A program made the translations under genes and the position numbers. Below are positions 10,024-62,775 of a stretch of 64,000 bases of DNA, one piece after another. The DNA comes from an uncultured Eubacteriales bacterium. Lineage in GTDB: Bacteria; Bacillota; Clostridia; Peptostreptococcales; Anaerovoracaceae. Under the pieces are notes generated by a model. The model saw only the letters and a list, made by a program, of their open reading frames with translations, made no database searches and was not told where the DNA came from. How positions within the stretch are numbered: the first letter of the stretch is position 1; the number at the start of each line of letters is the position of its first letter. Location: the NCBI GenBank assembly GCA_900540145.1, contig UQEW01000001.1, forward strand, positions 176-64,175, written 5' to 3'.

Positions 10024-10026
10024 ATG

Positions 10027-11289: not shown

Positions 11290-11316
11290 ATTGTTTCATA
11301 TACCTCCGCCAAGCGA

Positions 11317-12501: not shown

Positions 12502-12521
12502 AATTTTAACCGCCCCCTTGA

Positions 12522-13241: not shown

Positions 13242-13852
13242 TTTATCCGCCTCCTTACAATTTCTTCGCAAATCATCTGCGTAGCCTCAGGCAGAAGTTT
13301 CCATTCAGCCTCTTCCATCACTCTTCGCTGCAGAGTTTGGGGAGTATCGTCAGGCTTTACCTCCACGGCTTTCTGCAATATTATTCTGCCTCCGTCTGTT
13401 ATCTCATTGACATAATGAACTGTAGCCCCGGTTACTTTTACACCGTAATCGAGGGCTGCCTGATGGACTTTAATCCCATAGTAACCTTTCCCGCAGAAGG
13501 ATGGGATGAGAGAAGGATGAACGTTTATTATCCTTCCTGCATATCTGCTGGTAAAATCTCCGCTGAGTATGCTCATAAAGCCTGCCATCACTATGAGGTC
13601 CGTCTGATTTTTGTCTATCAGCTGAGACATCTTTTCTTCGTATTCTTTCTGGGAATCAAAATCTTTACGGCATACCACTGCTTGATCTATTCCGTTGGCC
13701 TCGGCCCTCTTGAGAGCATAGGCATCCTTTTTGCTGGAAATGACCAACGTTATCTGTCCGTCTTCAATTGCTCCGCTTTTTTGTGCGTCTATCAATGCCT
13801 GCAGGTTGGTTCCTCCGCCTGACACCAGCACTGTTATTCTAGCTTTCAGCAT
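13238..13852 (-). CDS. purN: Phosphoribosylglycinamide formyltransferase
   Basis: 204 aa, with the PurN motifs ([22 protein letters not shown]). Confidence 0.9.
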
Positions 13853-14889: not shown

Positions 14890-14963
14890 AACCTGTTTTC
14901 CTTTCTATGCCTATTGTTTTTCATTTTCCGTAGCGTCTTGATTGCTCTTTACCTATTCTTTGC

Positions 14964-16388
14964 CTACTCTTTGCCGCTCCAGCAATAAGTACAGAGCTTG
15001 CACGGCTCGAGACCGATAGCTTCTATTACTCCCTCCAGCGATTGAAATTCCAGGGAAGCAAAATTGAATTTCTCACATATGGCCCTTCTTAAAGCTTGAC
15101 CTCTTTCTGTATCGGAATTGCTGTACTCTTCTATGTGTTTCTGACCTTCATCGCCTTCCAGCTCTTGAATTATTCTTCTGGCCAGAAGTTCCATATCTCC
15201 TCTTCCTCTGGAGAAGTTTAAAAATTTGCATCCGTACATTATAGGCGGGCATGCTGAACGCATATGGACAGCTTTTGCGCCGTTATCATATAGAAAATCC
15301 ACAGTTTCCTTAAGCTGAGTTCCTCTTACTATGGAATCGTCTACAAACAGCAGATTCTTATCTTGAATAAGCTCATGAACCGGTATCTGCTTCATCTTGG
15401 CTACCTTGTCACGTTCTTTCTGGTTGGTCGGCATGAAGCTTCTGGGCCAAGTAGGCGTATATTTTATAAACGGTCTGGCAAAAGGCACATCGCTTTTGTT
15501 GGCATATCCTATGGCATGAGGAGTTCCCGAGTCAGGCACACCGCCTACATAGTCCAAGTCCTGAACCAGGCCTTTCTTCATGTCTCTTTCAGCCATTATC
15601 TCGCCATTCCTGTATCGCATGGCCTCTACGTTGATTCCTTCGTAGTTGGATGTTGGATAACCGTAATATGACCATAAGAAAGCGCATATTTTCATTTCTT
15701 TGCCTGCCGGCGCCAGCTGAGTCATGCTTTCGGCCGTAAGTTCGACTATTTCTCCCGGTCCAAGCTCACAAACATCTTCATATCCCAGCTTGGTGTATGC
15801 GAAGGACTCAAATGACACACAATAGCCCAGCTCGTCTTTGCCTATATGAACAGGTATCCTTCCGAACCTGTCTCTGGCGGCTATTATATGTCCTTCGTCT
15901 GTAAGAATTAAAATAGATGCAGTTCCTTTAATGGATTCCTGCGCATATTTGATTCCTTCCACAAAATCCCTTTTCTGACTTATAAGAGCTGCCACAAGTT
16001 CGGTATTGTTAACTTCTCCTCCCGTCATAGAATCAAAATGTCCGCCTCCCAGAGTCAAATAATCGTCTATGAGCTCTTTGGCATTGTTTATTATGCCGAT
16101 TATGCATATGGCATAAGTACCGAGATGAGAACGGATGAGAAGCGGTTGGGGGTCCGAATCGCTTATACAGCCGATAGCCGACCTTCCCTTCATCTCATCG
16201 AATATATTCTCAAATTTTGTTCTGAACGGTGAGTTCTCTATATTATGAATTTCCCTCTGAAGCCCGATCTTTTCATCGTAAGCAGCAAGGCCTCCTCTTC
16301 TGGTTCCAAGGTGCGAATGATAATCCACGCCAAAGAACACATCTACCATGCAATCTTCCTTCGAGGCAACTCCAAAAAATCCACCCAT
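14964..16388 (-). CDS. purF: Amidophosphoribosyltransferase
   Basis: 474 aa, with an N-terminal Ntn-type glutamine amidotransferase domain, a PRPP-binding motif (LLFVDDSIVRGTQ) and C-terminal cysteines (CKLCTYCWSG) of the kind that ligate an Fe-S cluster. Confidence 0.9.
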   Translation of the reverse strand: MGGFFGVASKEDCMVDVFFGVDYHSHLGTRRGGLAAYDEKIGLQREIHNIENSPFRTKFENIFDEMKGRSAIGCISDSDPQPLLIRSHLGTYAICIIGIINNAKELIDDYLTLGGGHFDSMTGGEVNNTELVAALISQKRDFVEGIKYAQESIKGTASILILTDEGHIIAARDRFGRIPVHIGKDELGYCVSFESFAYTKLGYEDVCELGPGEIVELTAESMTQLAPAGKEMKICAFLWSYYGYPTSNYEGINVEAMRYRNGEIMAERDMKKGLVQDLDYVGGVPDSGTPHAIGYANKSDVPFARPFIKYTPTWPRSFMPTNQKERDKVAKMKQIPVHELIQDKNLLFVDDSIVRGTQLKETVDFLYDNGAKAVHMRSACPPIMYGCKFLNFSRGRGDMELLARRIIQELEGDEGQKHIEEYSNSDTERGQALRRAICEKFNFASLEFQSLEGVIEAIGLEPCKLCTYCWSGKE

Positions 16389-16457
16389 TATATTTTACAT
16401 CCTCCTGTCACCTAAGCTGTCCCTTGCCTATCTTGTCTCTCGTTCTTTAACCTGAAA

Positions 16458-17144
16458 TTACGCGAAAAACAGTTCTGAAAGTGTCATAGGATCAATATAT
16501 TTTCCGTCTTTGTACACTCTCATATTACCTGAGGCAATCTCATCAATAAGCATTACGTTTCCATCTTTATCATATCCGAATTCGAACTTGATATCGTACA
16601 GAACCAGTCCTTTTTCTTTTAAATCGTCAGCCACAATCTGAGTTATGCGCTGAGTCATGGATTTTATATCTTCATACTGGCTGTCTGTCATCACGCCGAG
16701 AACCACAAGAGCATCCTTTGTTACCAGCGGATCGCCTTTTTCGTCATTCTTAAAAGTTGTTTCAACATAAGCAGGCAAATCTGCGCCTTCTTCTATGTAT
16801 TCCCCATAGCGGCGGATAAAGCTGCCTACTGCCTTATGACGGCATATTACTTCAAGACCGTGGCCGAATACCTTGGCCGGCAAAACTTCCATGGTGGTGT
16901 TTTCCAAATCAGCACTTACGTAATGAGTCTTTATTCCTGCCTGATTGATTTTCTCGAAGAAATATATTGACATGCGCAGGTTAACGTCGCCTACTCCATC
17001 GATGGTAAGTCCTATGGAATTTTCGCCCGGGTCGAAAACTCCGTCTTTTCCTGTGCAGTCATCTTTAAACTTTAAAAGATAGTTTCCGTTGTCCAGCTCG
17101 AATACATTTTTTGTCTTTCCTGTGTAAACCAATTTGTTTTCCAT
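16458..17144 (-). CDS. purC: SAICAR synthase
   Basis: The start is placed at the internal ATG 17144 ([17 protein letters not shown]), which is preceded by AGGAGAAAAG. The longer listed ORF would overlap purE. Confidence 0.9.
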
Positions 17145-17208
17145 AATCTTTTCTCCTTGTCGCAAATAAATATTATATAAAATTTTTGATATGTCGCCTT
17201 TAATCTGA

Positions 17209-17697
17209 CTAAAACCTTGCAGAAATATCTGCATCCTTTTCCAGAACCTTTTTAGCGTCGGCATCTCTCTTGGCCTGAAGTCTTGCTGCCAGTTCTTCAT
17301 CTTCTATAGCCAGCATCTGGCATGAAAGCAAAGCGGCATTGACTGCTCCGTCTATGGCAACTGTAGCTACAGGAATTCCCGAAGGCATCTGAACAGTTGA
17401 AAGCAATGCGTCAATGCCGTCTAAAGTCGAAGATTTTACAGGTACGCCTATTACGGGAAGGCATGTGCCTGCTGCAAGAGAGCCTGCCAGATGAGCAGCT
17501 TTTCCGGCAAAAGCTATGATCGCGCCAAACCCTTTTTCTCTGGCGGTGCGAGCAAATTCAGCAGCCTCCTTAGGAGTTCTGTGTGCAGAATAAACATGTA
17601 CTTCAAAAGGTACTCCCAGTTCTTTCAATGTATCCGCCGCTTTTTCAGCAACAGCCAGGTCACTGTCAGAACCCATTACGATTCCAATCTTTTTCAT
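17209..17697 (-). CDS. purE: N5-carboxyaminoimidazole ribonucleotide mutase
   Basis: 162 aa, with the PurE motifs ([15 protein letters not shown]). Confidence 0.9.
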
Positions 17698-17786: not shown

Positions 17787-17802
17787 TTGCAAGGAACAAA
17801 TA

Positions 17803-17876
17803 CACCCAGACGGTCGGCTATCTAAGCTTTCTGCTTCCTTGCGGTTATCCGCGTCTTCCGTCAGTCACAAAAAGCT
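17803..17876 (-). ncRNA. Probable ZTP (pfl motif) riboswitch in the purE leader
   Basis: Minus-strand RNA GCUUUUUGUGACUGACGGAAGACGCGGAUAACCGCAAGGAAGCAGAAAGC...AGCCGACCGUCUGGGUG. It matches the pfl consensus blocks UGACUGGCG, a GNRA-capped P2 hairpin and CCGGACCGCCUGGGCA. The pseudoknot shows covariation (GACGG with CCGUC). Confidence 0.6.
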
Positions 17877-17889
17877 GCCTTGTGATTTC

Positions 17890-18013: not shown

Positions 18014-19270
18014 TTACTCTTGAACCTTCTGTCCTTTCTGTCTTCCGGCGCCTATATCAGCTGCCGCCGTAAATAACACGTCTGTAGAAGAGTTAAGCGC
18101 TGTCTCGCATGAATCCTGAATAACTCCAATTATGAATCCCACGCCTACAACTTGCATAGCGATATCGTTAGGAATTCCAAACAGAGAACATGCCAGCGGT
18201 ATCAACAGCAGCGAACCTCCGGCAACTCCTGACGCACCGCAGGCTCCTATGGCAGAAACCACGCATAGCAGTATCGCCATACCAAGATCTACAGAAATAC
18301 CCAGGGTGTTAGCAGCTGCCAAAGTAAGCACGGAGATGGTCACCGCAGCGCCTTCCATGTTAATGGTAGCGCCGAGAGGAATTGATATAGAATAAGTATC
18401 CTTATCTAATTTCAGTTCTTCGCATAGTTTCATATTAACCGGAATGTTGGCTGCAGAACTTCTGGTGAAGAAGGCGGTTATGCCACTGTCCTTCAGGCAC
18501 TTGAAAACGAGCGGATAAGGATTCCTTCGAATCTTAATAAACACCAGCAGTGGATTGACTATAAGCGCATCAAACAGCATCGTGCATACTAAAAGTAAAA
18601 TAATCATTCCGTATCCCAATAAAGTTGAAAGTCCGCTGGTTGCTATGGAATTAAATACAAGTCCCATAACGCCCAGAGGCGCCAATTTTATTACCCATCT
18701 TACAGCTTTAGATACGGCTTCAGCTATGTCAGCTAAAACGTTTTTAGTAGCATCAGAAGCATGTCTCAAAGCTATTCCAAGAACTATGGCCCAAGCCAAT
18801 ATTCCTATGTAGTTGGCGTTGAGTATGGCATCTACAGGATTGGATACTATGCTGAATATCAAATTTCCAAGGACTTCTCCGATTCCTCCCGGAGGCGCCA
18901 CATCTTCAGAGCCGGTAGGAAGAGTGAGTTCCATCTTAAATATGAAACTGGCTATAACAGCTATCGTACCTGCTAAAAACGTTCCCAAAAGATATAAAAC
19001 TATAATCGCTTTCATATTGGTCTTTTGTCCGGCCCTATGCTGAGATATGGCAGACATAACCAAAAATAACACCAATACCGGCGCGATGGCTTTTAACGCT
19101 CCTACAAACAAGTCACCTAAGACCGTTATGCCTGACAGCTGTTTTGGAAACGCCAACGCCAGTATTATTCCTACTATAAGACCTATAATAATTTGTTTTA
19201 CAAGGCTTATCTTGTTCCAACGAATAAGTAAATTTTTCAGCATTATTTTTCTCCTCTTCTCATTTTGCAT
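18014..19270 (-). CDS. sstT: Serine/threonine:Na+ symporter (DAACS family)
   Basis: 418 aa, with strong SstT motifs ([44 protein letters not shown]). Confidence 0.85.
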
Positions 19271-50823: not shown

Positions 50824-50825
50824 TA

Positions 50826-50875
50826 AAAAAATGTCCTTAACATGGTTGTTAAATCATGTCAGGGACATTTTTTAT
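50826..50875. terminator. Bidirectional terminator between the convergent radical-SAM and ybaN genes
   Basis: An A-run, then the inverted repeat ATGTCC...GGACAT, then a T-run. Confidence 0.5.
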
Positions 50876-50890
50876 ATATTAAATTTTTTA

Positions 50891-51301
50891 TCAATTATCA
50901 GACATTGCTGTCAAAGCGGAGTCTCTTTTTATGGTTTTAACGCCAAACACAAAATAAACGATGTGGCATATCCATATAAAAGCCAATATGATACTCGGGA
51001 TCAGAATATTTGCCCTCATCATCATGAAAAATCCAAGCCCCATAAGTAATGTAACAGGTATGATAATACTTACTTTGGTCTGCACAGTCATGCCTTTTTT
51101 CTTGACAAACGAATCCAAGTGTTTTTTATAAAGTTTAGTATTAATAAACCAGTTATGAAGCCGTTGGGATGACTTAGCAAAGCAAAACACTGTAACTAAA
51201 AAAAATGGTACTGTGGGTAAAATGGGAAGAACAACTCCCACACATCCCAACGCCATGAAGATAAACCCTAAAACCAAAAAAACAATCCGTTTTAATTTCA
51301 T
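50891..51301 (-). CDS. YbaN/DUF454 family small inner-membrane protein
   Basis: 136 aa, about 4 transmembrane helices, last gene of the minus-strand operon. Confidence 0.65.
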   Translation of the reverse strand: MKLKRIVFLVLGFIFMALGCVGVVLPILPTVPFFLVTVFCFAKSSQRLHNWFINTKLYKKHLDSFVKKKGMTVQTKVSIIIPVTLLMGLGFFMMMRANILIPSIILAFIWICHIVYFVFGVKTIKRDSALTAMSDN

Positions 51302-51325
51302 CTTTTACCTCCTAATTTTCTGTCT

Positions 51326-53017
51326 TCAGCTCATGCGCCCATGTTCTACAGAATACACTTTATCTGCAATTTTCATGGTAGATTGTCTATGCGACACAAG
51401 CACCACCGTTTTTCCATCACGTTCTTTGTCAAGAGATTTTAATATCACAGCTTCATTAAGGCTGTCTAAATTACTGGTCGGCTCATCAAGCAGTATAAAC
51501 TTGGCTCCATGCAGAAAAGCCCTTGCTAGTCCAATACGTTGTCGTTCCCCGCCTGAAAGAGATTCGCCCAATTCTCCTACTGGCGTATCATATCCTTCAG
51601 GCAATGTTATTATAAAATCGTGAATTGACGCTTTTCTGCAGGCATCCATAATCTCTTCCTCTGTGGCAGTCAATTTGGCTATACGTATGTTATTCTTTAT
51701 ACTGTCATGAAAAAGATGTGTATCTTGAGTAACAAAGCTTTCCATATCTCTAAGATTATCAGTATTAATATCATTAACTTCGTTTCCTGATATTTTAATG
51801 CTGCCCTGTTGAATATCCCAAAATCTCATAAAAAGTTTAAGCAATGTAGACTTTCCACTGCCACTCTTGCCTATCAACCCCACAATAGAGTTCGGCGGAA
51901 AATAAACAGAAACATCTGAAAGAACCGGCGCCTCATTTTCATCATAAGAAAAAGTTACATTAGCAGCTTCCGCATCTAAAAATTCCACTTTCGGCTTTCC
52001 CACAACTTCACTTACTACAGGCGTGTCATCCAAAATATCCAAAACTCTATTGCCGGCAGCAAAAGTATTTTGAAGAGTACTTCCCAAATTGGCCAAAGCA
52101 ATCACAGGTCCAAAAGATGAAAATAAAGTCAGCACAGATATAAGCATACCATCAAATTCTATCGAGCCCATTTGAAAGAGCACAGCAGACAGGAACAGCA
52201 TGGCAGCATCAAAAATCAATACTGTAACATTAGTAACAGCTCCGTTCCGTCCTGCTATATATTTGATTTTTTCTTCATCATTTTCCAGTTGACCCATTCT
52301 ACTCTTCATTTCATTCAACCTGTTTTCTCCTTGATCGTACTGGAGTATCTCAGCTAATCCTCTCAGGCTGTCCAGTACAAAAGCTGACAGTTCGCCTGAT
52401 TTGTTTCTAAAGGTCAATCCTATATCGCCACTTAATTTAGAAGTGGCCATCGGAATCGCTATGCCGACTGTAATATAGGATGCCAAAGCAAGAAGTCCAA
52501 GTATCCAATGGTAAGACCATATGATAAAACTCATAACCCCAGTGAACAAAAATGCTATTGCAGCCGGTGATACGGTATGAGCATAGAAAACTTCCAATAG
52601 CTCAATATCTGAAGTTATAACAGAAATCAAATCACCCTTGTCCCTAACTTCCAGCTTGGCCGGGCATAGTCTACGCAGTGCGCCGAACACCTTATCCCTG
52701 ATAAGAGCCAAGAGTTTAAATGCAATAAAATGATTGCATGCTTGCTCAGCGTATCTTAAAATCCCTCGCATGACAGCACACAATGCTATCAATCCAAACA
52801 GACATCTAAGGCTCAATATGTCATAAATATGCAAGGCTTCCAGCACTGCATATCCACCGAGTACAGTTATAAAAGTAGCGCACAGATGACCTAAAAATCC
52901 CATGACGACGGCCAGCATCATGAAACCAGCAAGAGGCTTTACAAGTCCTATAAGCCTAAACATCACCATAAATCCGCTTCTACTGTGAGTATCTGTCCTG
53001 AAATCACTCTTTTTCAT
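51326..53017 (-). CDS. cydC: ABC exporter subunit (fused transmembrane and nucleotide-binding domains), CydC-like
   Basis: 563 aa with a six-helix exporter transmembrane domain followed by a nucleotide-binding domain (GKSGSGKST, LSGGERQR). Its start overlaps the upstream gene by 14 nt. Confidence 0.7.
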   Translation of the reverse strand: MKKSDFRTDTHSRSGFMVMFRLIGLVKPLAGFMMLAVVMGFLGHLCATFITVLGGYAVLEALHIYDILSLRCLFGLIALCAVMRGILRYAEQACNHFIAFKLLALIRDKVFGALRRLCPAKLEVRDKGDLISVITSDIELLEVFYAHTVSPAAIAFLFTGVMSFIIWSYHWILGLLALASYITVGIAIPMATSKLSGDIGLTFRNKSGELSAFVLDSLRGLAEILQYDQGENRLNEMKSRMGQLENDEEKIKYIAGRNGAVTNVTVLIFDAAMLFLSAVLFQMGSIEFDGMLISVLTLFSSFGPVIALANLGSTLQNTFAAGNRVLDILDDTPVVSEVVGKPKVEFLDAEAANVTFSYDENEAPVLSDVSVYFPPNSIVGLIGKSGSGKSTLLKLFMRFWDIQQGSIKISGNEVNDINTDNLRDMESFVTQDTHLFHDSIKNNIRIAKLTATEEEIMDACRKASIHDFIITLPEGYDTPVGELGESLSGGERQRIGLARAFLHGAKFILLDEPTSNLDSLNEAVILKSLDKERDGKTVVLVSHRQSTMKIADKVYSVEHGRMS

Positions 53018-54758
53018 GATGAATCACCTCTATTTTTTCATAAGCCTCTAATTCTTGTTGAAAATCCCACATTTTTTTATACAAACCCGATTCATTGAGC
53101 AGATCGTCATGATTGCCCGATTCGGCCACAATACCGTCATTTAACACATAAATATTGTCTGCCTTTGATACATTGGCCAACCTATGTGAAATCAATATGA
53201 CAGTCTTGGTGGCAGCAAGGCTATGTATCTGTTCCATTATGTCATTTTCACTTTCAACATCTATATTGGAAGTCGCCTCATCAAAGATATACACGGGGCT
53301 ATCGTGCAAAAGCGCGCGGGCAAGCGCTAAACGCTGACGTTGACCTCCCGATAAATTAGCAGCTTTTTCCTCCACAAAAGTCTCAAGACCTTGCTCAGCT
53401 CTTAAAAAATCAGCCAATTTGACTTGTTCTAACGCTCTCCACATGTCCTTATCAGAAGCATATTGATCGCCTATAAGTAAGTTCTCCTTTACGGTCCCTT
53501 TAAAGATATAGCTTTGATGACTTACATAAGTTATATTTTCAAGCAGTGATCTTTCATCTATATCTCTTAAATTTGTATCCCCTATGGTTACCGTCCCCTT
53601 GTAGCCTTTGTTCTCATTCATCAAAATAGAGGCAACAGTTGACTTCCCGCAGCCGCTTTCGCCTACTATACAAGTAAATTCCCCCTGCTTAAAACTGATA
53701 TCGATGCCTTGCAAAACCTGGCGAGAAGGTTCATAACCGAACCAAATATCTGACAAATTGATATCGTACGTTAAAGGAAAAGTTTTAAAAGCGCTTTTCT
53801 TTTCTTCCGGTATGTCCAAAAGGTTAAAAATCTTGTCACTGGCAGCCATTCCATTCATGGCTATATGGAAAAAGCTCCCCAACTGCCGCATAGGCAAGAA
53901 GAAATCTGCAGCCAATAAAATGATAAGCAGACCTCCTGAAAGAGATATATCGCCTGCTTTATATTGAATCACCGATAAGATGATTCCAAGAGCAGCGCCT
54001 CCATAAGCGATTAAATCCATAATTGCTATGGAATTAAGCTGCATTACAAGTACTTTCATGGTAATCTTGCGGAATTTCTCCGCCTCTTGATTCATCTCAT
54101 CATTTTTAAAGCTATCTGCTTTGTATATCTTTAAAGTCGTAAGTCCCTGCAAATTTTCAAGGAATGTATCTCCTAAGACAGTATACTGACCCCAATATTT
54201 GCTTAACAGCTTTTTAGCCCATGTCTGAACTGCGGCTATAGCAACAGGTATTAATGGTACACATATTAACAAACAAATGGCTATGAGAATGTTAACGAAG
54301 CACAAGGCAGAAAATAAAGTAATTGGTGCAAGCATAGAATAGAAAAACTGCGGAAGGTATGAGCCAAAATAAATTTCAAGCTGCTCGACTCCTTCTACTG
54401 CCACCTGAACTACTTCGCTGGTCTTTACGTGTTCATTATATGAATGTCCAAGGCTAAGCAATTTCTTGTATATACATTCTCTCAATTTCTCCTTTACCAT
54501 TTTAGACGACAGATAGCTCATTTTAGCGGAGCTGACAGTACATACAAATCGAATAACCAAAGCTGCAACTACTATTGCTATAGTTTTCCATAACTCATCA
54601 GGCTCAATACTTCTTAACAGCAAAGCTTCTATCATACCAGTTATGCTCATCATCATGGCAATGTTAGCCAAAAGCCCGCACCATTGCAATATAACGTTTC
54701 CGGCAATATATTTTTTGCTTCCTGCGACTGTAGTTATAAGTCTTTTATTTATCATCAT
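53004..54758 (-). CDS. cydD: ABC exporter subunit (fused transmembrane and nucleotide-binding domains), CydD-like
   Basis: 584 aa. Transmembrane-domain motifs resemble E. coli CydD (e.g. ADFFLPMRQLGSFFH against PEFFQPLRDLGTFYH). The nucleotide-binding domain has GESGCGKST and LSGGQRQR. Confidence 0.7.
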   Translation of the reverse strand: MMINKRLITTVAGSKKYIAGNVILQWCGLLANIAMMMSITGMIEALLLRSIEPDELWKTIAIVVAALVIRFVCTVSSAKMSYLSSKMVKEKLRECIYKKLLSLGHSYNEHVKTSEVVQVAVEGVEQLEIYFGSYLPQFFYSMLAPITLFSALCFVNILIAICLLICVPLIPVAIAAVQTWAKKLLSKYWGQYTVLGDTFLENLQGLTTLKIYKADSFKNDEMNQEAEKFRKITMKVLVMQLNSIAIMDLIAYGGAALGIILSVIQYKAGDISLSGGLLIILLAADFFLPMRQLGSFFHIAMNGMAASDKIFNLLDIPEEKKSAFKTFPLTYDINLSDIWFGYEPSRQVLQGIDISFKQGEFTCIVGESGCGKSTVASILMNENKGYKGTVTIGDTNLRDIDERSLLENITYVSHQSYIFKGTVKENLLIGDQYASDKDMWRALEQVKLADFLRAEQGLETFVEEKAANLSGGQRQRLALARALLHDSPVYIFDEATSNIDVESENDIMEQIHSLAATKTVILISHRLANVSKADNIYVLNDGIVAESGNHDDLLNESGLYKKMWDFQQELEAYEKIEVIHHEKE

Positions 54759-54847
54759 TATTTAATCCGCCTTTTACTGATTTTATTATCATCATCCTTT
54801 ATCTGCTTCTTTTGAATTTTCACATAAATATTTTTCGTCATATGCTG

Positions 54848-55624
54848 CTACACCGGAATCACGAAGGGTCTTTCGTCTATCTTTCTAATATCAAGTTCAA
54901 CGTCATATACTTGGCGTACCAGTTCTGTCGTTATAATTTCTTCAGGTAATCCCTGGGCAAGCATCCTGCCATCTTTCATAGCAACTATTTCGTCACTGTA
55001 ATATAAGGATTGATTTATATCATGAAGTACCATAACTATAGTTAGGCCATATTGATGATTCAGCTGTCTAATTAGCTTTAAAATTTGTAATTGATAACGA
55101 ATATCCAAATATGTAGTCGGTTCATCGAGAAACAGCACTTTGGTATCTTGTGCTAAAGCCATAGCTATCCAAACTCTTTGCATTTGTCCACCGGAAAGTT
55201 CTGAAACAGGTTTGTCCTTATGCTTGAAAGTATTAGTCACTTCTAAAGCCCATCGCACTTTTTCTTCATCTTCATCAGCATTGTTGGCAATTCCCATAGT
55301 GTGATAAGGACTCCGCCCATAGCTGACTAGCTTTTCAACTGACAAATCTGCGGGAGCCGTATTATATTGGTGAACGATGGAAACTTCTTTTGCAAACTCT
55401 TTAAGTTTTATATGGAAAATATCTTTTCCTTGCAAAAGCACCTCTCCGCTGTCAGGCCGCAAATTCTTAGTCATCAATCCGAAAAGTGTCGATTTGCCGC
55501 AGCCATTGGCTCCGATAAGCGTAGTAATGGCGCCATGCTTAATTTTCAAGTCGAAGTCTTTCAGTATTTTTTGATTGCCATAAGAAAAGGAAAGATTTTT
55601 GACAGTGAATATACTATTGTCCAT
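54848..55624 (-). CDS. Iron-complex/heme ABC importer ATP-binding protein (FecE/HmuV type)
   Basis: 258 aa with GANGCGKST and LSGGQMQRV. Confidence 0.85.
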   Translation of the reverse strand: MDNSIFTVKNLSFSYGNQKILKDFDLKIKHGAITTLIGANGCGKSTLFGLMTKNLRPDSGEVLLQGKDIFHIKLKEFAKEVSIVHQYNTAPADLSVEKLVSYGRSPYHTMGIANNADEDEEKVRWALEVTNTFKHKDKPVSELSGGQMQRVWIAMALAQDTKVLFLDEPTTYLDIRYQLQILKLIRQLNHQYGLTIVMVLHDINQSLYYSDEIVAMKDGRMLAQGLPEEIITTELVRQVYDVELDIRKIDERPFVIPV

Positions 55625-56606
55625 AGCTTTGTCTTGACCTCCTTAGCAGCAGAATGAAGAACGGTCCTCCGATCACCGACATGATTACAGAAGCGCTTAT
55701 CTCGTAAGGCGCCGCTATGGTACGTCCGGCCGTATCTGCCAGTAACAACACAAAAGCGCCTAAAACCATGGTATACGGTACCAATACTTTATGATTGCTC
55801 CCCACCAATAGCCTGGCTATGTGAGGTACTATGAGACCCAAAAAACTTATAGGCCCTATGATCGCAGTGGCTATGCTTGCCAGCAACACGCCGATAGTCG
55901 AAATTATTACACGGCTTCTGGTTACATTTACTCCTAAGGATCTGGCAGTCTTATCTTCCAAAGCTAAAAGATTGCATTGGCCAAGAACAAAAACAGAGGT
56001 GCAAAGGCCGATAAGGACATAGATCAAAAGAGTCTGAAAATCATCCCAAGTTTTCATAGTTATATTAGCGTTAACAATGCTGGCAACGCCGGAGTAATTG
56101 CTGCCCGTACCTGAGTTAAAAGCGCTCATCAATCCTGTGAACATGGCATTAACTGCTACTCCAACCAGAATAATACGCATTGGGCTCAAGCCACCTTTCC
56201 ATGACAAAGAATACACCAGTACAAAGGCTATCATTCCGCCAGCAAATGCAAACAACGGCGTAAAAAAATATAGAGTAGGGAAAAATGCTGTAATAAGTAC
56301 AGCTGTTAAGCTTGCGCCTGAGCTTATTCCAATAATCCCCGGATCGGCCAGAGGATTTTTCATCACAGCTTGCAAAAGTACACCTGAAACAGCAATGGCA
56401 GCGCCTCCGAAGACAGCGATAAAAATCCTAGGAAAACGCAAGTCATAAATTGTAGCTACGTCCTCATTGTATTTAATAAACAATCCTTTTAACAGCTCCA
56501 TAGGTGTCACCTTTAAACTACCTGTATTAACAGCCAGCAAAAATAACATAATAAGTCCTAGAGCAGTGATTACAAAGGAAAGTATCTTTTTTCTCTTGCT
56601 TACCAA
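55614..56606 (-). CDS. FecCD-family iron-complex/heme ABC importer permease
   Basis: 330 aa, with about 9-10 transmembrane helices and the FecCD signature region. Confidence 0.85.
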   Translation of the reverse strand: MVSKRKKILSFVITALGLIMLFLLAVNTGSLKVTPMELLKGLFIKYNEDVATIYDLRFPRIFIAVFGGAAIAVSGVLLQAVMKNPLADPGIIGISSGASLTAVLITAFFPTLYFFTPLFAFAGGMIAFVLVYSLSWKGGLSPMRIILVGVAVNAMFTGLMSAFNSGTGSNYSGVASIVNANITMKTWDDFQTLLIYVLIGLCTSVFVLGQCNLLALEDKTARSLGVNVTRSRVIISTIGVLLASIATAIIGPISFLGLIVPHIARLLVGSNHKVLVPYTMVLGAFVLLLADTAGRTIAAPYEISASVIMSVIGGPFFILLLRRSRQSYGQ

Positions 56607-56629
56607 TGGCTACCTCCTTAAAACGACTT

Positions 56630-57532
56630 TTATTCATCACCATAAAGCATAGGCTGCAGCTGTTCTAATGCTTGTGCGTAATTAAAATTAGCGCTCATAT
56701 TGAAAAGCGATGAATCTAGATCATACACTCTTCCTTCCTGCACTGCTTCGAAATGCTTCCATATATCGTTGGTTTCAAATTCCTTAGCAAACATTTCTCT
56801 TGCCATATCTGGCAGTCCATGCGCAGCCCTCAAAATGACATCCGGCTCTTTAGTCTTAATATCCTCGGTATTGGCAAATAAGAATTCTTCTCCTTCACCA
56901 TCTCCGTAAACATTAGTTCCTCCGGCCAATTTTACAAGGCTGCCTACATAGCTGTTATCAGTAGCCACTATATAAGATCCCGGCAATCCCATCAGAACCA
57001 AAACCTTGGGAGATTCCTTGCCTTCATTCTTGCTTCTATATTCGTCCATAAAAGCGTTATACTCATCCACAAGAGCTTGTGCTTCTTCTTCACGTCCGAA
57101 CTTTTCTCCCAAATCGGAAATTGAAGCATACATGCCCTCTACGCTTCTCAAATTTAAAAACAAAGAATTGATTCCTATGGAGCCATATTTAGGCTGGAGA
57201 TCACTCTGCAAAGTATTAGGCGATAATACATAATCCGGATCTAATGATTTAATTATCTCCAAATCCGGATTCATAGCCATGCCCACAGTTAAAATGCCTT
57301 CATACCTTGCCGGTATGGAACTATTAGTCTCACATACGCCTACAAGATCAAGATTTAATTTATCACATATGTTTGCAACAGCAGGAGAAGTTGCAATAAG
57401 CCGCACATTCTCCGACGATGAAACCTGCGCATCAACTTCTGCATTTTCCTCTGGATGTTGATTAACACAGCTCGTCATGGAGAACATTAAAAGTAACATG
57501 AAAACAAATAATAAAACCGTTTTAAGCTTCAT
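56630..57532 (-). CDS. Class III periplasmic-binding-protein lipoprotein (HmuT/FecB type)
   Basis: The start is placed at ATG 57532 (MKLKTVLLFVFMLLLMFSMTSC), a lipoprotein signal, with the ribosome-binding site AAGGAGG. Confidence 0.8.
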   Translation of the reverse strand: MKLKTVLLFVFMLLLMFSMTSCVNQHPEENAEVDAQVSSSENVRLIATSPAVANICDKLNLDLVGVCETNSSIPARYEGILTVGMAMNPDLEIIKSLDPDYVLSPNTLQSDLQPKYGSIGINSLFLNLRSVEGMYASISDLGEKFGREEEAQALVDEYNAFMDEYRSKNEGKESPKVLVLMGLPGSYIVATDNSYVGSLVKLAGGTNVYGDGEGEEFLFANTEDIKTKEPDVILRAAHGLPDMAREMFAKEFETNDIWKHFEAVQEGRVYDLDSSLFNMSANFNYAQALEQLQPMLYGDE

Positions 57533-57548
57533 ACTTGCTCCTCCTTGC

Positions 57549-58421
57549 TTAGTTTCTTTTCTTAAAGACAAAATACCATATGCATGCTCCGGCAACGGCT
57601 AAAATAACTGCACCGCCTAATATCCACCATAGAATTGTGCTGTTGCTGTTTGAACTGTGGTCATTTTCTTCATTGGTCTCAGTTGCATCCACTTTGTTCC
57701 CTGATTCATCAAACTCCTCAAGACCTTCCGTGCTTTCATTGCTATCTTCATCGTTTAAAGCTTCTCCGCTGTCAACATTTTGTTCATTTGCGTTTAAATC
57801 GTCAGTATTATTATCTTCGGAAGTGGATGCTGCCGGCTGCTCTGCTTGCGACGGAGCATCAGATAAAACTTCTGTTTGTTCTGCTTTAACACTGGCAACA
57901 AAGTCGCCTGAGCCTGATTTTAAATTATCTACAGTTATATAGAAGACTACTTCTCTGCCCATAGGTATGACATACATATTGCAACGAATAACACAATTCT
58001 CATTTGGTACTTTCATACGAAAATCAGTAGTGTTGGCAGTAAAATCCTCCTGCATTATATCTGCAGAAACAGACGAAAACTTCCCATTTCTTGAACTATC
58101 TACCTGAAACTTAGGGCTCTCAATATTATCCATTAAGTTGAGTCGTATTGTTACCCATGTATTGCCTGAAGAGTCTATCTCTACAAGAGCACTTTTATTT
58201 AAAGCGCTTTCTGTCATAGATTGACCAAGGACATAAGAACCTTCCCCTCCCGAATCCTCAATCACACCAGTAGATGGATGCCTATAATGAGAAGTGGCTG
58301 TAGCAGTATATACGCCGCTGGAAGCGGCTTGAACCGGTATAGCAGCAATACCCGCCAAAATGGCGAGTATTACTACCATACTGCACACTATTCGTTTGAT
58401 GAATTTTGCAGCATGTATCAT
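57549..58421 (-). CDS. Secreted, C-terminally membrane-anchored protein with one NEAT-like domain and an acidic linker
   Basis: 290 aa with a signal peptide. It has an SMTESAL lip-like motif followed by ALVEIDSSGNTWVTIRL. The C-terminal transmembrane helix plus KKRN carries no sorting motif. Confidence 0.45.
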   Translation of the reverse strand: MIHAAKFIKRIVCSMVVILAILAGIAAIPVQAASSGVYTATATSHYRHPSTGVIEDSGGEGSYVLGQSMTESALNKSALVEIDSSGNTWVTIRLNLMDNIESPKFQVDSSRNGKFSSVSADIMQEDFTANTTDFRMKVPNENCVIRCNMYVIPMGREVVFYITVDNLKSGSGDFVASVKAEQTEVLSDAPSQAEQPAASTSEDNNTDDLNANEQNVDSGEALNDEDSNESTEGLEEFDESGNKVDATETNEENDHSSNSNSTILWWILGGAVILAVAGACIWYFVFKKRN

Positions 58422-58441
58422 CTTTTTATTTCTCCTTTCCG

Positions 58442-60850
58442 CTAAACTTGTGCATTTTTAGTTTTTCTAACTGCAATAGTTACTCCAGTCATTGCAGCAG
58501 CCGCTAATGCAAGAATTAACAGCGGTATAAAGTCTGTCACATCTCCTGTCTTAGGGATATCTGCTGAATTTTCAGCATCAGTTATCGTGCTGCCTTTTTC
58601 TACCATAGAATAGATCCCTGACGTTCTGGTAATAACCGTGTAATAGTTGTCCTCCACGTCGCCTCTCATAAGGATCTTGTTGCCATCGTCCATACGATAA
58701 ACTGCCAAGCTGTCAGCATCATACCCTGCAGTTATAGGGAATTTTATAGTGACCACTCCATTGGCATCCACTTTATTTCCATCGGCATCAAGAAATTCTA
58801 TATTATAAAGTTTGAATTTTTTTCCTACCTCATTCAAAGAAGATGCCGCTTGGTCGTAATCAGCTCCGGAAGTTATTTCATTAATAACAATCTGAACGCC
58901 CTCTTCAAACACGCCTTTATCCGCAGATACCCTTACTCCTGTTTCTGGGTCAGCGTAATTTACTGCCGGAGACTGTTCAACAGGTTCATCGTTATCAAAC
59001 GCCGGATCATCTTCTGTAGTCTCTTTTAACGTAGACCAATCAAGCTGAAGCAGTACATCCTGATCTCCGGTGCCGTCTGAAATATCCTCCATTACCGGTA
59101 CGAATACATGCAATGGCACATATCCGTTCTCATCATTTAAAGCATCTTGTACCAATGGAAATTTTATCTGGTCAGGGTAAAGCTTCCCTTCGTAAATTCC
59201 CCCTTGTTGATTAAATTCATCTTTTACATCACTGCCATCAGCATTTTTTTGTGTAGAAAGCACTTGAGCTGCTTTCGTGACCCCTTCAATAGAGCCATAT
59301 TGTCCATACTTATAGCCAGCATCATAATATGAAAGTTCTGCCAGATATCCGAATTTGTTCAAATAAGCCAGCCCGTGGAAGTCCATGGTAAGATAGTATT
59401 TGCCATCTTCTACTGTCAATTTGACAGTATGGTTTATTGCGTCGTTAGCCATAGATTTTTCTTGGCGATTAGTCTTTATCATTTCGCCGTATATGGAATA
59501 TACACCGTCAGCCAACGAAAATCTGTCTAATACTTGTTCATCGCTTTCTGACGGATCTTCAGACGGCTCTGTAGTTTCGGTGCGTTCTACCAAAGCATCC
59601 ATAGCCTTCTGCAGCTCATTGATTGCCTCAGTCACATCAGCAACTCCTGCATCATCATCAGCCATAACTTCCTTTGCCACAGCTAATTTTTCTTCAAAAT
59701 CTTTCCAGCTGGCATCTGTGTAGTCAGACGCTTTTTTAATTTCTGCTTCAGAAATCAAGGTCTCAAGCGATGATTTGTCTCCTTTCTCTTCCAAAGAGTT
59801 CATAGCGTCAACAAGTTCTTCTGCCATCTGCTTATTTTCATCGTCGTTAAACTGTTTAAGATTCAGCACCGGCACTGGATTAAAACCCGTCGGAACTTCT
59901 ATTTGCTGCGATGGCCATACATTAGACAGTGTCTTTTCAATTTCGGCTATCACAGATTGCAAAGCATTGTATGACTCATCAGTATAATTTCCCTTTTCTA
60001 TCTGAGTGGCTAAGTACAGCTGATATTGAACATTCTCCTCAGGGTTTTCCACTTTTTCAAGGGAGGTCCAATCCACTTGCAATCTTGCATATTGTTCGCC
60101 AGTATATGTAGCAATGCTAAACATTACCGGCACGAAAACAGAGACATAAGCTGCATGTTCCCATGTATATTCTGCAGCCGTAACAGGCTCATCGCCTTCC
60201 CCAATCATTATCGGCGTGGCATCAGCTGTCAATATGTGAGGATATGCTTTGTTAGTGACATCTACCAGGTACGCTTCATGGCCATAACCGTCTGGCCTCA
60301 TGTGAGCGATAGGATCGGTGCCATCTATGGCAAACTCCGAATCAGGGTCGTTAAACTGGTCAAATACCACCTTTCCGTCTTGTGTCCTATGTTCCGCCAA
60401 AACTGTAGCTTGAGTATAAGTGCTGCTCTCCTCCACAGGAGCCAGATTAAACAAAGTGGTATTTATGGAATTAAGCTCTAATAGAAATCCATAATACATA
60501 AGGTATCCCATAGGCATATACTCTAATATCGCTGTCGCTTTTCCGTCTTTCACCACTATAAGCGGTTTAAAACCAACATCGCCGGTCTGTTTAGCTTCAT
60601 AGCTACTACTACCTCTTAATGCAGTATTCCCCATGGAGACTGTATCTCTTGTAGCATTCATTAATTCAATATCTGCATAATAAACACCATCTTCTGCCGG
60701 TACAGAAAGTTGTTTTACCGGAACTCCTGACGCTTTTACACTTGCCCTTGCCTTCAATGTAAAACCATTTGACAAGCTCAGACCGACTAACAAGGTAAAA
60801 ATCATCAATACTGCAAAGCTTCGTTTGATAAGCGCATGCTTTGTTTTCAT
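58442..60850 (-). CDS. Large cell-surface protein with two NEAT-like domains and a C-terminal sortase-type (IPKTG) sorting signal
   Basis: 802 aa with a signal peptide. Two internal repeats (about residues 55-130 and 470-545) show DGVY...SM(G/A)N..., K..V.DGK.Y and Y..Y motifs. IsdC-like SIANDY is replaced here by SMANDAI and SMGNTAL. The C-terminus is IPKTGD plus a hydrophobic helix plus RKTKNAQV. Confidence 0.5.
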   Translation of the reverse strand: MKTKHALIKRSFAVLMIFTLLVGLSLSNGFTLKARASVKASGVPVKQLSVPAEDGVYYADIELMNATRDTVSMGNTALRGSSSYEAKQTGDVGFKPLIVVKDGKATAILEYMPMGYLMYYGFLLELNSINTTLFNLAPVEESSTYTQATVLAEHRTQDGKVVFDQFNDPDSEFAIDGTDPIAHMRPDGYGHEAYLVDVTNKAYPHILTADATPIMIGEGDEPVTAAEYTWEHAAYVSVFVPVMFSIATYTGEQYARLQVDWTSLEKVENPEENVQYQLYLATQIEKGNYTDESYNALQSVIAEIEKTLSNVWPSQQIEVPTGFNPVPVLNLKQFNDDENKQMAEELVDAMNSLEEKGDKSSLETLISEAEIKKASDYTDASWKDFEEKLAVAKEVMADDDAGVADVTEAINELQKAMDALVERTETTEPSEDPSESDEQVLDRFSLADGVYSIYGEMIKTNRQEKSMANDAINHTVKLTVEDGKYYLTMDFHGLAYLNKFGYLAELSYYDAGYKYGQYGSIEGVTKAAQVLSTQKNADGSDVKDEFNQQGGIYEGKLYPDQIKFPLVQDALNDENGYVPLHVFVPVMEDISDGTGDQDVLLQLDWSTLKETTEDDPAFDNDEPVEQSPAVNYADPETGVRVSADKGVFEEGVQIVINEITSGADYDQAASSLNEVGKKFKLYNIEFLDADGNKVDANGVVTIKFPITAGYDADSLAVYRMDDGNKILMRGDVEDNYYTVITRTSGIYSMVEKGSTITDAENSADIPKTGDVTDFIPLLILALAAAAMTGVTIAVRKTKNAQV

Positions 60851-60897
60851 TTTTTAACCCTCCGTTTCTCTTTTCATTACCACGAAATAAAGACATC

Positions 60898-60934
60898 TTT
60901 AGTTAGTTAAGTTAGTTATAACTAACCATTTTAG
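60898..60934. promoter_or_regulatory. Operator-like repeat: GTTAGTTA three times, including the perfect palindrome GTTAGTTATAACTAAC
   Basis: It lies 50-85 nt upstream of the ATG of the first operon gene. It resembles DtxR/IdeR-type iron boxes (TTAGGTTAGCCTAACCTAA). Confidence 0.5.
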
Positions 60935-61248
60935 ACAACTTTGTTTCAATTATGGCATTACGGTGCTCTGCTTACATTGACCATTGATTCCTCCTTTTTA
61001 CATAAACTCTTTATTGGCCAGAAGACCAAACTTTTCGTTCACTCTTCTGATGTAATGTTGTAATATTGAGTTAGTTTAATCTAACATAGCAGTTTATTTT
61101 TCTTCAGTCAATACAAATTTTGAACCAAAGCAGGTACAGCCAGTTATTTCTATCATCAAAGATCACAATATATTTCTCTATTTTTAATGATTGCATGTTT
61201 TGTACCATCATTGGTTCAAAAAATTTTATGAATTTTTGTTTTCTAAAC

Positions 61249-62142: not shown

Positions 62143-62165
62143 GTTTAGTTAGTTAACACTAACCC
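62143..62165. promoter_or_regulatory. Second operator-like box GTTTAGTTAGTTAACACTAACC in the regulator's own promoter region
   Basis: Imperfect palindrome sharing the TTAGTTAGTTA...CTAAC core with the box at 60898-60934. Confidence 0.45.
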
Positions 62166-62208: not shown

Positions 62209-62775
62209 TTATCTATGCTTATTTGATACTTGCTTCAATGTTACTACTCCATAGACAAGTGCTCCTATATTGCCTGCAATCATATCAGTAACCGTATCAA
62301 CCATGCCTCTTTGCATTCCGCCGCCTGCAATTTTATCAGCCAGGAACTCAAAAATCTCCCATAGCCCGGCTCCCCCGCTGGAAAACATACACGCTGTAAA
62401 AATCATGGGAATAACAAAAGGTTTCAAGTCTTCCACCTTAGAAGTCCGCTTTAACAGCTTTTCTATTATAAACATGCCAAATGCAGCCAACAAAAATCCG
62501 CTTATAAAATGAACAATTTTATCATAAGGGCCTACGAATCTATATAAATCGATTATAGAGCCAAGAGGCGACGCCATAAAGATAAATACCAATCCGCTGT
62601 AAAACAAAGTGTCGTCTACTTTTATTATTTTCGTTACGATTACCATAATCACTATTGAAACAAAAGCCCCTGCTACATTAGCAGCAGGAGGATTTATCCC
62701 AATCGCATATGCTATTACAACTGCTGGCGCTGTAGCAGCTGTCAATATTATTATTCCGGTTGTTCTGCCTTTCAT
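62209..62775 (-). CDS. Small polytopic membrane protein of unknown function
   Basis: 188 aa, about 5 transmembrane helices, immediately upstream of the regulator on the same strand. Confidence 0.4.
   Translation of the reverse strand: MKGRTTGIIILTAATAPAVVIAYAIGINPPAANVAGAFVSIVIMVIVTKIIKVDDTLFYSGLVFIFMASPLGSIIDLYRFVGPYDKIVHFISGFLLAAFGMFIIEKLLKRTSKVEDLKPFVIPMIFTACMFSSGGAGLWEIFEFLADKIAGGGMQRGMVDTVTDMIAGNIGALVYGVVTLKQVSNKHR

Follow-up and report, generated by a model that had tools for sequence, protein, structure and literature searches.

A probable Shr/Shp/Sia-type heme acquisition operon in an uncultured Eubacteriales bacterium, with a CydDC-like transporter pair and a candidate DtxR-NEAT regulator

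Why should a pair of CydD- and CydC-like half ATP-binding cassette (ABC) transporters be encoded directly behind an importer, with no cydAB (cytochrome bd) genes nearby, and what controls such a gene set? The question is raised by an operon in a 64,000-nt stretch of DNA from an uncultured Eubacteriales bacterium (GenBank assembly GCA_900540145.1, contig UQEW01000001.1, positions 176 to 64,175 of the forward strand), which is called the window below. A first reading, made from the letters alone without database searches (the sequence-only reading), had described eight co-directional, tightly spaced minus-strand genes between 50891 and 60850, and the open reading frame (ORF) list returned all eight at those coordinates with junctions as described (Table 1). 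We conclude that the locus is likely to be a heme acquisition operon of the Shr/Shp/Hts(Sia) type, in which the CydDC-like pair acts on heme in the membrane and which belongs to a regulon under a regulator encoded beside it. The dedicated heme role that the sequence-only reading had proposed is well supported by the predicted proteins, namely a lipoprotein that reaches the IsdE equivalog cut-off, Shr/Shp-type proteins with two methionine ligands each (bis-Met), the conserved heme-ligating histidines of the pair and the lack of nearby cydAB.

The two proteins encoded first had been described as surface proteins of NEAT type, and profile searches together with comparison against the S. pyogenes structures 9w5y and 2q7a placed both in the Shr/Shp class with both axial methionines kept. 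Gene 1 reached the Pfam NEAT model (PF05031, 49 bits, cut-off 32.8) and also matched FIVAR. Its product consists of a signal peptide, an N-terminal NEAT-like domain, a helical FIVAR linker, a second NEAT domain, a C-terminal domain and a sorting signal. The second NEAT domain (residues 441-608) aligned with S. pyogenes Shr NEAT2 (9w5y) over the whole chain (E=3.6e-28). Its Met467 and Met587 occupy both axial positions, those of Met997 and Met1107, the heme iron ligands of Shr NEAT2 (PMC12796733). The N-terminal domain (approximately residues 50-270, with Met73/Met243) is of the Shr type and was missed by Pfam; when the two copies are aligned to each other (E=3e-10), their SMxN and FVPVM motifs coincide. 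The Pfam scan of gene 1 returned NEAT and FIVAR only, with no Shr HID (PF07550) and no leucine-rich repeats (LRR). At the C-terminus, the translation reads IPKTG followed by a transmembrane (TM) segment and a basic tail, a predicted sortase sorting signal. In a metagenome contig of the same species (L003, 4430-6838), gene 1 was called as two ORFs of 282 and 506 amino acids (aa), which could be due to a frameshift, strain variation or an assembly error.

Gene 2 matched the HemeBinding_Shp family (PF11545) at E=2.4e-56 with 190 bits, and S. pyogenes Shp (2q7a) at E=2.9e-25. With the Shp ligands Met66/Met153 as the criterion, the Met-bearing motifs GQxM and PMGREVVFY were found to be invariant. 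The protein begins with a signal peptide, continues with the Shp domain (residues 35-178, with Met69/Met154) and an acidic low-complexity linker, and ends in a C-terminal TM anchor.

The three genes that follow encode the importer. Gene 3 scored 395.5 bits on the IsdE model TIGR03659, well over the curated cut-off of 298.65, and aligned end to end with Listeria Lmo2184 (5joq, E=5e-74) and S. aureus IsdE (2q8p, E=7e-64). Its lipobox cysteine is Cys22, and the IsdE ligand positions (chain M49/H200, which we take to be Met78/His229 in IsdE numbering) are kept, with Met87/His238 as the putative ligands in gene 3. The SiaA protein of a streptococcal locus (L088, described below) scored 407 bits on the same model. 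The sequence-only reading had recognised a binding lipoprotein, and its label changes from HmuT type to IsdE/SiaA(HtsA) type. The FecCD permease and FecE-type ATPase that it had named are also present: gene 4 is covered over its full length by PF01032 (E=1e-84), and gene 5 carries PF00005, with FecE-like and heme ABC ATPase models as its best NCBIfam matches, all under their cut-offs. The chain from NEAT relay to IsdE-type lipoprotein and FecCD permease is also that of the Isd/Hbp systems of Staphylococcus, Bacillus and Listeria. However, Isd NEAT domains ligate heme through tyrosine, whereas the window proteins use the Shr/Shp methionine pair (PMC12796733), and neither an IsdG-type heme oxygenase nor sortase B was seen in the window locus.

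The closest known arrangement is the S. pyogenes sia operon, shr-shp-siaABC-siaDE-siaFGH, which is controlled by the DtxR-family regulator MtsR and in which the only label given to siaD and siaE is 'putative ABC transporter' (PMC6593403, PMC6698748). The streptococcal sia locus L088, from a close relative of S. pyogenes (Shp 79% identity), encodes in order Shr (1274 aa; HID, NEAT and LRR), Shp, SiaA, SiaB, SiaC, two half transporters of 587 and 556 aa, and an energy-coupling factor (ECF) module; L088 and L090 carry Trep_Strep, CbiQ and a double ATPase after the pair. The best models for SiaD and SiaE of L088 were CydD (292 bits) and CydC (243 bits), both under the cut-offs, and the two proteins, aligned over their entire length, are 29% and 31% identical to genes 6 and 7. 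The streptococcal sia system was reportedly described in 2003, and the function of its SiaDE pair is said never to have been established. Gene order and families agree with those of the window from the bis-Met NEAT receptor through to the CydD-like/CydC-like pair, and in both cases a DtxR-family regulator is at hand, so that in terms of its predicted products the operon appears to be a clostridial counterpart of shr-shp-siaABC-siaDE and not a new kind of system. The linkage of importer and CydDC-like genes, which had been singled out as striking, is indeed present but is not new, because siaD and siaE of the sia operon are themselves CydD-like and CydC-like.

The window differs from the sia operon in several respects. 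Its receptor lacks the Shr HID and LRR and has instead the FIVAR linker and the LPXTG-like IPKTG; no SiaFGH ECF module is present, and a DUF454 gene and a hairpin end the operon; the regulator adjoins the operon and carries a NEAT domain; and the host, taken to be an Oscillospirales-like member of the Clostridia, is a gut anaerobe, whereas S. pyogenes is a pathogen. From the sequences, what appears to be new is therefore the DUF454 linkage, the lack of an ECF module and of hemoglobin-binding domains, the gut-commensal hosts, and the NEAT-fused regulator with its operator.

Genes 6 and 7 had been read as homologues of CydD and CydC. These are their best-scoring models, with a margin of about 100 bits over the runner-up outside CydD (MsbA, 297.5 bits) for gene 6 and of about 40 bits over the best model outside CydD/CydC for gene 7, and both heme-ligating histidines are kept, although neither protein reached the equivalog cut-off. 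The nucleotide-binding domains (NBDs) dominate whole-protein scores, and the comparison was therefore repeated with the transmembrane domains (TMDs) alone; full-length phmmer searches of both proteins against the PDB were uninformative, being dominated by NBDs and by two-domain ABCB1 proteins. In the PDB, the gene 6 TMD matched E. coli CydD with 82.5 bits and mycobacterial CydD with 66, the next family following at 45. Profiles were then built from the TMDs of 47 operon-linked clostridial homologues. The D profile gave 169-174 bits for SiaD, 128 for E. coli CydD and 47 for MsbA, and the C profile gave 189-194 bits for SiaE, 67 for E. coli CydC and 45 for MsbA. A neighbour-joining tree of ABC half transporters was discarded on account of saturated distances, and the profile scores were used instead. 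Because of these TMD profile scores, genes 6 and 7 are assigned to a SiaDE branch of the CydDC family. As in E. coli and mycobacteria, the pair would form a heterodimer of half transporters, with the gene of the D half placed before that of the C half. In one related locus (L033, 14637-18092), a single ORF of about 1151 aa joins a CydD-like and a CydC-like half in frame, which is consistent with two halves acting as one transporter.

In E. coli CydDC, the heme iron is ligated by CydC H85 and CydD H312, the propionates are bound by CydC R77, R81 and R136, and CydD F195 and Y311 stack on the ring (PMC10374445). When the sequences were aligned jointly, H312 corresponds to His298 of gene 6, Y311 to Phe297 and F195 to Trp189, while H85 and R77 correspond to His96 and Arg88 of gene 7. 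The window pair shares both axial histidines with SiaD/SiaE and with 46 of the 47 operonic homologues; MsbA, MdlA and MdlB lack them. Aromatic residues occupy the F195 and Y311 positions in the window and clostridial proteins as in E. coli; SiaD has Met at the Y311 position. At the R77 position, Arg was found in 17/47 and His in 29/47 operonic homologues. The NBD motifs of both proteins are canonical, so both sites look catalytically competent; E. coli CydDC, by contrast, reportedly has one degenerate NBD site (PMC10374445). Conservation of the axial histidines strongly suggests a CydDC-type bis-histidine (bis-His) heme-binding site in the membrane domain of genes 6 and 7, and heme is the most economical and most likely ligand of the pair because that site is kept.

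No cydAB genes had been noticed in the window, and this held in Pfam scans of its large ORFs and in tblastn searches with E. coli CydA and CydB, which found no match in the window or in 83 related loci (L001-L090). The sequence-only reading had also pointed out that cydAB just outside the window and co-transcribed with these genes would speak against a heme trafficking role; on longer contigs of the same organism, none was found within about 7.5 kb past the right end.

The conservation of the gene set was examined by scanning one genome per species with a two-sequence Shp alignment. This gave 97 Shp loci, of which the best 80 by window similarity were fetched; the streptococcal loci lay outside these 80 and were recovered separately, from a PDB-derived Shp sequence by way of its homologues and the contigs encoding them. 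Among the best 80 of 97, the loci belong mostly to Oscillospiraceae/Ruminococcaceae and Lachnospiraceae (Blautia, Mediterraneibacter, Coprococcus, Anaerostipes and others), with a few from Eggerthellaceae. Synteny was counted in the 49 Shp loci of other species whose sequence extends 4.5 kb or more past the importer ATPase gene. CydD-like, CydC-like and DUF454 genes all follow the ATPase gene in 38 of these loci, the set is incomplete in two, DUF454 stands alone in five, and none of the three is found in four. The DUF454 gene lies before the pair in 31 loci and after it in eight, and in two of the loci with DUF454 alone (L080 and L085) the pair lies a few kb upstream instead. The arrangement is not due to chance, since dozens of other species carry this gene set too. 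Four loci labelled Bifidobacterium, Tidjanibacter, Odoribacter and Bacteroidaceae (L047, L062, L078 and L086, respectively) have a Lachnospiraceae-like gene content and are probably mis-binned contigs of metagenome-assembled genomes (MAGs), not cases of horizontal transfer.

The last gene had been called a YbaN/DUF454 protein. Gene 8 reached the DUF454 family (PF04304, 120 bits, gathering cut-off 35.1), so the family stands; it appears not to be a YbaN equivalog because its score on NF007818 stayed under the cut-off (70.7 versus 163 bits). It shares 34% identity with E. coli YbaN (E=2e-21) and carries the general YbaN motif LPxLPTxPF...FCFAxSSxxLHxW, with Cys40 and His49. Furthermore, the operon-linked DUF454 proteins (L009-L087) keep a Cys-His pair in the last TM helix (WICH, His113), which E. 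coli YbaN lacks. A single-sequence AlphaFold2 model of gene 8 had a predicted local distance difference test score (pLDDT) of 66 and a predicted template modelling score of 0.36 and was not used for a fold search. DUF454 is present in 44 of the 49 loci, and is thus linked to this importer at least as tightly as the CydDC-like pair. Two papers on Proteobacteria independently tie the family to iron or heme, which is a hint in the same direction: a DUF454 protein is induced under iron restriction in Avibacterium (PMC7970244), and DUF454 co-occurs with hemophore and heme-oxygenase loci (bioRxiv 10.1101/2024.09.26.615229).

Upstream of the operon, the sequence-only reading had passed over a gene and a set of operators that bear on its control. 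The gene encodes a protein without a signal peptide, whose N-terminal part is predicted to be a DNA-binding (winged-helix) and dimerisation domain of the DtxR/MntR fold and whose C-terminal part is a NEAT-fold domain with SMxN (Met167) and HMPES (Met267) motifs. Sequence searches gave weak MntR matches at the N-terminus and a sub-threshold NEAT match at the C-terminus, and all homologues are annotated as hypothetical. An AlphaFold model built from 28 homologues had a pLDDT of 86, and its top Foldseek match was the heme-bound NEAT5 domain of IsdX2 (E=6e-6). A profile of the C-terminal domain matched Shr-type NEAT domains with 97.6% probability (E=4e-12) and SMxN in register. Both SM(A/G)x-GF and (H)MPES were kept in 32 of the 33 regulator homologues in the fetched loci, and they correspond to the two Met-bearing elements of Shr and Shp. 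In DtxR and IdeR, an SH3-like domain stands where this protein has the NEAT fold. Among 1.8 billion cluster representatives searched, 532 members were found at E<=1e-3 and 310 at E<=1e-10, mostly of 265-290 aa and matched end to end; the family comprises about 500 clusters at 50% identity, none of them annotated. No paper describing a DtxR-NEAT fusion was found in the literature library searched. The protein is possibly a cytoplasmic heme-sensing transcription factor.

Three palindromes of the form GTTAG-N6-CTAAC lie around the regulator gene. One overlaps the -10 hexamer of a promoter-like site in front of the operon, the second lies ~60-75 nt before the start codon of gene 1, and the third lies upstream of the regulator gene itself, 12 nt downstream of a promoter-like -10 (site 62202-62174), which suggests autoregulation. 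Positions such as these, over the operon -10 and after the regulator promoter, are typical of repression and autoregulation. The half sites seem to resemble the arms of the DtxR/IdeR box, TTAGG..CCTAA, and such a palindromic operator is a further likeness to the DtxR/IdeR/MntR regulators. Six box matches occur in the window where 1.5 would be expected, and three of the six fall in a 1.3-kb stretch around the regulator gene. Nine of 11 related loci have two TTAG-N6-CTAA boxes about as far from the first operon gene as in the window, and the other two have one. In the fetched loci, 22 boxes precede the first NEAT gene and 16 the regulator gene; a further seven precede shp where this is the leading gene, and three precede CydD-like genes, namely in L015 and in L080 and L085, whose pair sits apart from the importer. 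In 93% of 54 sites, the searched pattern is bordered by G and C; because these bases are conserved though they lie outside the searched pattern, the motif is not an artefact of the search, and the real site is GTTAG-YTWWAR-CTAAC. The protein that binds these boxes would be the adjacent regulator, and their distribution strongly suggests that genes 6 and 7 belong to the same regulon as the importer. Rfam returned no riboswitch in the long 5' leader of the operon. Between the two operators of this leader lies a tiny ORF, MVNVSRAP (60958-60984, minus strand), with a strong AAAGGAGG ribosome-binding site.

Taken together, the locus may work as follows. By homology, the sortase-anchored receptor would capture heme at the cell wall with its two bis-Met NEAT domains and hand it to the membrane-anchored Shp-like protein and then to the IsdE/SiaA-type lipoprotein, from which the FecCD permease and its ATPase would import it. 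The heterodimer of genes 6 and 7 would work on heme that has partitioned into the membrane, in the service of acquisition and homeostasis, and the DUF454 protein would be a membrane partner in this step. We slightly favour extraction of membrane heme into the cell over flipping it outward, which is almost equally probable, because siaDE-type genes are co-regulated with uptake genes and derepressed under hunger: in vivo, under iron/heme hunger, repression of siaD and siaE is lifted along with that of shr, shp and siaABC (PMC6593403), an expression pattern that by analogy would fit acquisition better than heme-induced efflux. In group B Streptococcus (GBS), deletion of cydDC lowers intracellular (cytoplasmic) heme, raises membrane heme and reduces heme toxicity, and the authors propose that membrane heme is extracted for import (2026 preprint, PMC13192879). 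The GBS pair resembles the window pair in that both are Gram-positive CydDC-family pairs implicated in the use of environmental heme, a likeness of described function. It differs in being encoded in cydABCD with cytochrome bd, in an organism without surface heme receptors (PMC13192879), whereas the window pair is encoded along with a complete surface relay and a canonical importer. The operon and the detached CydDC-like genes would form one regulon through the GTTAG-N6-CTAAC operators and the adjacent regulator, whose NEAT domain would sense cytoplasmic heme.

Several observations weigh against this account of the pair, of its partner and of their control. Gene 6 scored 401.3 bits on the CydD model TIGR02857, under the equivalog cut-off of 435, and gene 7 scored 312 bits on the CydC model TIGR02868, under 329.05. 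In single-sequence PDB searches, the gene 7 TMD could not separate CydC from MsbA or YbtPQ, with YbtPQ (6p6i) at 33 bits and CydC at 31. Two of the propionate ligands of E. coli CydC are replaced, R81 by Gln92 and R136 by His147, and both substitutions are conserved within the subfamily; besides its scores, these changes, the lack of linked cydAB and the position inside an uptake operon set the window pair apart from E. coli CydDC. Nine of the 49 loci have no adjacent pair, so the pair is not required for import. The DUF454 protein is proposed as partner of the pair from synteny and the conserved Cys/His alone, and a single transcript across the 89-nt gap between genes 5 and 6 is assumed. The GBS claim of import comes from a preprint and from genetics only (PMC13192879), and the structure and biochemistry of E. 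coli CydDC support export, from the inner leaflet to the outside (PMC10374445). A binder of the operators other than the adjacent regulator, either a short MntR-like protein or a distant DtxR homologue, could also exist: six relatives carry a classic short DtxR/MntR-type gene (122-141 aa) between the ATPase and CydD-like genes.

The E. coli mechanism leads to the strongest alternative, in which the pair is an outward heme flippase that draws heme from the cytoplasmic leaflet and either acts as an overload valve during uptake, with recapture by Shp and the lipoprotein, or supplies heme to an extracytoplasmic or membrane hemoprotein encoded at another place, such as cytochrome bd. Besides the structural and biochemical evidence from E. 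coli, the type IV exporter fold, membership of the CydDC family, the conserved bis-His site and two canonical NBDs all accord with it. Against it stands the absence of cydAB from the window and the 83 related loci, and S. pyogenes, which carries SiaDE, is not known to respire. The pair is also co-regulated with uptake genes, siaD and siaE being induced under iron and heme hunger (PMC6593403), while the efflux systems HrtAB and PefCD are heme-induced (PMC13192879). We regard outward flipping as a possibility to be taken seriously, if a less likely one.

The second alternative concerns control. Here a conventional metal-sensing repressor of the DtxR/MntR/MtsR type, with its gene within the operon in relatives and at another site in the genome of the window, would bind the operators, the operon would respond to Fe or Mn, and the NEAT-fused protein would serve heme binding or storage or act on other targets. 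The short MntR-like genes of the six relatives (Table 1) speak for it, as does the control of the sia operon by MtsR. However, the window has no such gene, with only the 89-nt gap between its ATPase and CydD-like genes, and yet it has three operators, one of them before the gene of the NEAT-fused regulator. Across loci, the boxes co-occur with this regulator. Moreover, the MntR metal ligand H77, the one ligand position that was mapped, corresponds to Arg78 in the fused regulator, in a variable column. Control by a separate metal sensor is accordingly somewhat unlikely, and the adjacent DtxR-NEAT protein is the better candidate.

Export of a low-molecular-weight thiol (cysteine or glutathione), by which captured heme would be kept ferrous with heme as a bound modulator of the pair, is quite improbable, although thiol export is the function earlier ascribed to CydDC. 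The best TIGRFAM models of the pair are named 'thiol reductant ABC exporter', and bis-Met NEAT/Shp sites are able to hold ferrous heme (PMC12796733). However, current structural work makes heme the substrate of CydDC (PMC10374445, PMC10691846), conservation of the heme ligands is equally expected when heme is the substrate, and there would be little need for an exported reductant in the strictly anoxic gut. Least probable by far is the siderophore or metal-chelate system that the sequence-only reading had offered as its alternative, with the exporter-fold pair importing a non-heme ligand like IrtAB or YbtPQ: exporter-fold importers do exist, YbtPQ is the near match of the gene 7 TMD noted above and the importer ATPase scores best on FecE-type models, but every substrate-specific part is heme-type, from both surface proteins to the Met/His positions of the lipoprotein and the grouping of the pair with SiaDE and CydDC, and no siderophore-interacting (FAD-binding) domain was seen in genes 6 or 7 or elsewhere at the locus, nor any biosynthesis genes.

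Heme reaches the gut from the diet, shed cells and bleeding and is a major supply of iron and cofactor, and its uptake by the dominant Firmicutes commensals is poorly described. The Shr/Shp relay is widespread in Oscillospiraceae and Lachnospiraceae, and on the boldest reading of the locus, bis-Met heme capture would be a common trait of commensal gut anaerobes and not a peculiarity of S. pyogenes. To our knowledge, the NEAT fold has so far been met only in extracellular heme relay. The regulator would then found a family of cytoplasmic heme-sensing transcription factors that control a regulon through GTTAG-N6-CTAAC, a new sensor architecture and a ready-made heme-responsive switch. For streptococcal SiaDE and for DUF454/YbaN, a family without an assigned function that is tied here to heme handling, this reading would supply a first function. 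For siaD and siaE, a testable hypothesis is now at hand, namely that they encode heme translocases of the CydDC type whose bis-His site is conserved, and the operon is a natural system for the dispute over the direction of CydDC, export in E. coli versus import in GBS. We hold it tentatively, a little short of an even bet, that a family of heme-sensing NEAT regulators, a membrane-heme acquisition module of the pair with DUF454, and bis-Met capture as a common trait of gut commensals will all prove true together. In a 2025 structural paper, bis-Met ligation is presented as a hallmark of S. pyogenes proteins (PMC12796733).

Within the operon, genes 1 and 2 are separated by 20 nt and genes 2 and 3 by 16 nt, when gene 3 starts at the ATG at 57532, which is the choice of the gene callers on identical metagenome contigs; the longest ORF would start at a TTG at 57595 and overlap gene 2 by 47 nt. 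A 23-nt gap follows between genes 3 and 4, an 11-nt overlap between genes 4 and 5, the 89-nt gap between genes 5 and 6, a 14-nt overlap between genes 6 and 7 and a 24-nt gap between genes 7 and 8. The operon and a convergent radical SAM gene share a terminator-like hairpin that stands between them; a simple terminator scan missed the hairpin because its stem is imperfect.

Table 1 Features of the locus and of related loci (window coordinates unless a related locus is named)
Feature	Position	Strand	Basis or remark
Gene 1, cell-wall heme receptor, 802 aa	58442..60850	-	Pfam NEAT + FIVAR; Shr NEAT2 match
Gene 2, Shp-type heme-binding protein, 290 aa	57549..58421	-	PF11545; 2q7a match
Gene 3, IsdE/SiaA(HtsA)-type heme-binding lipoprotein, 300 aa from ATG	56630..57532	-	TIGR03659
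Gene 4, FecCD-family permease of a type II ABC importer, 330 aa	55614..56606	-	PF01032
Gene 5, importer ATPase, 258 aa	54848..55624	-	PF00005
Gene 6, SiaD-type CydD-like half ABC transporter (TMD + NBD), 584 aa	53004..54758	-	TIGR02857; TMD searches
Gene 7, SiaE-type CydC-like half ABC transporter, 563 aa	51326..53017	-	TIGR02868; TMD profile
Gene 8, DUF454/YbaN-family small membrane protein, 136 aa	50891..51301	-	PF04304
Operon control region, 398 nt non-coding	60851..61248	-	Promoter scan and sequence
Promoter-like site TTGACT, 17-nt spacer, TATGTT	61111-61083	-	Promoter scan
Operator GTTAG-N6-CTAAC overlapping the -10 hexamer	61070-61085	-	Palindrome
Operator GTTAG-N6-CTAAC before gene 1	60911-60926	-	Palindrome
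Third operator GTTAG-N6-CTAAC	62148..62163	-	~60 nt upstream of regulator start
Regulator, predicted DtxR/MntR fold + NEAT fold, 279 aa	61249..62088	-	Outside operon coordinates
Terminator-like hairpin (ATGTCC..ACATG / CATGT..GGACAT) + T run	50825..50867	-	Read from sequence
Radical SAM/SPASM protein, 459 aa	49444-50823	+	Convergent with operon
Short MntR-like gene in related locus L009	13601-13981
Short MntR-like gene in related locus L011	13587-14012
Short MntR-like gene in related locus L012	13574-13954
Short MntR-like gene in related locus L014	5986-6378
Short MntR-like gene in related locus L020	11335-11706
Short MntR-like gene in related locus L021	8506-8874

Two neighbouring genes were considered as further members of the system and set aside. 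The radical SAM gene was weighed as an anaerobic heme-modifying partner, but its best models, NirJ2 and AhbD, scored far below their cut-offs, and it is not near the operon in any other species. The DUF2238 gene at 62209-62775 is likewise not conserved near the operon. The DNA of the window recurs on many human and animal gut metagenome contigs, and the nearest genomes by Shp are MAGs of uncultured Ruminococcaceae/Oscillospiraceae, with Shp identity of at most 82-83%. Far from the operon, two riboswitches were found on the minus strand of the window. A Moco/tungsten riboswitch (975-1104) lies upstream of a PBP_like_2 binding-protein gene (34-909), and a ZMP/ZTP riboswitch (17797-17878) lies between a short minus-strand ORF (17209-17697), which precedes a purine biosynthesis cluster (6319-17300), and an SDF symporter gene (18014-19270, minus strand).

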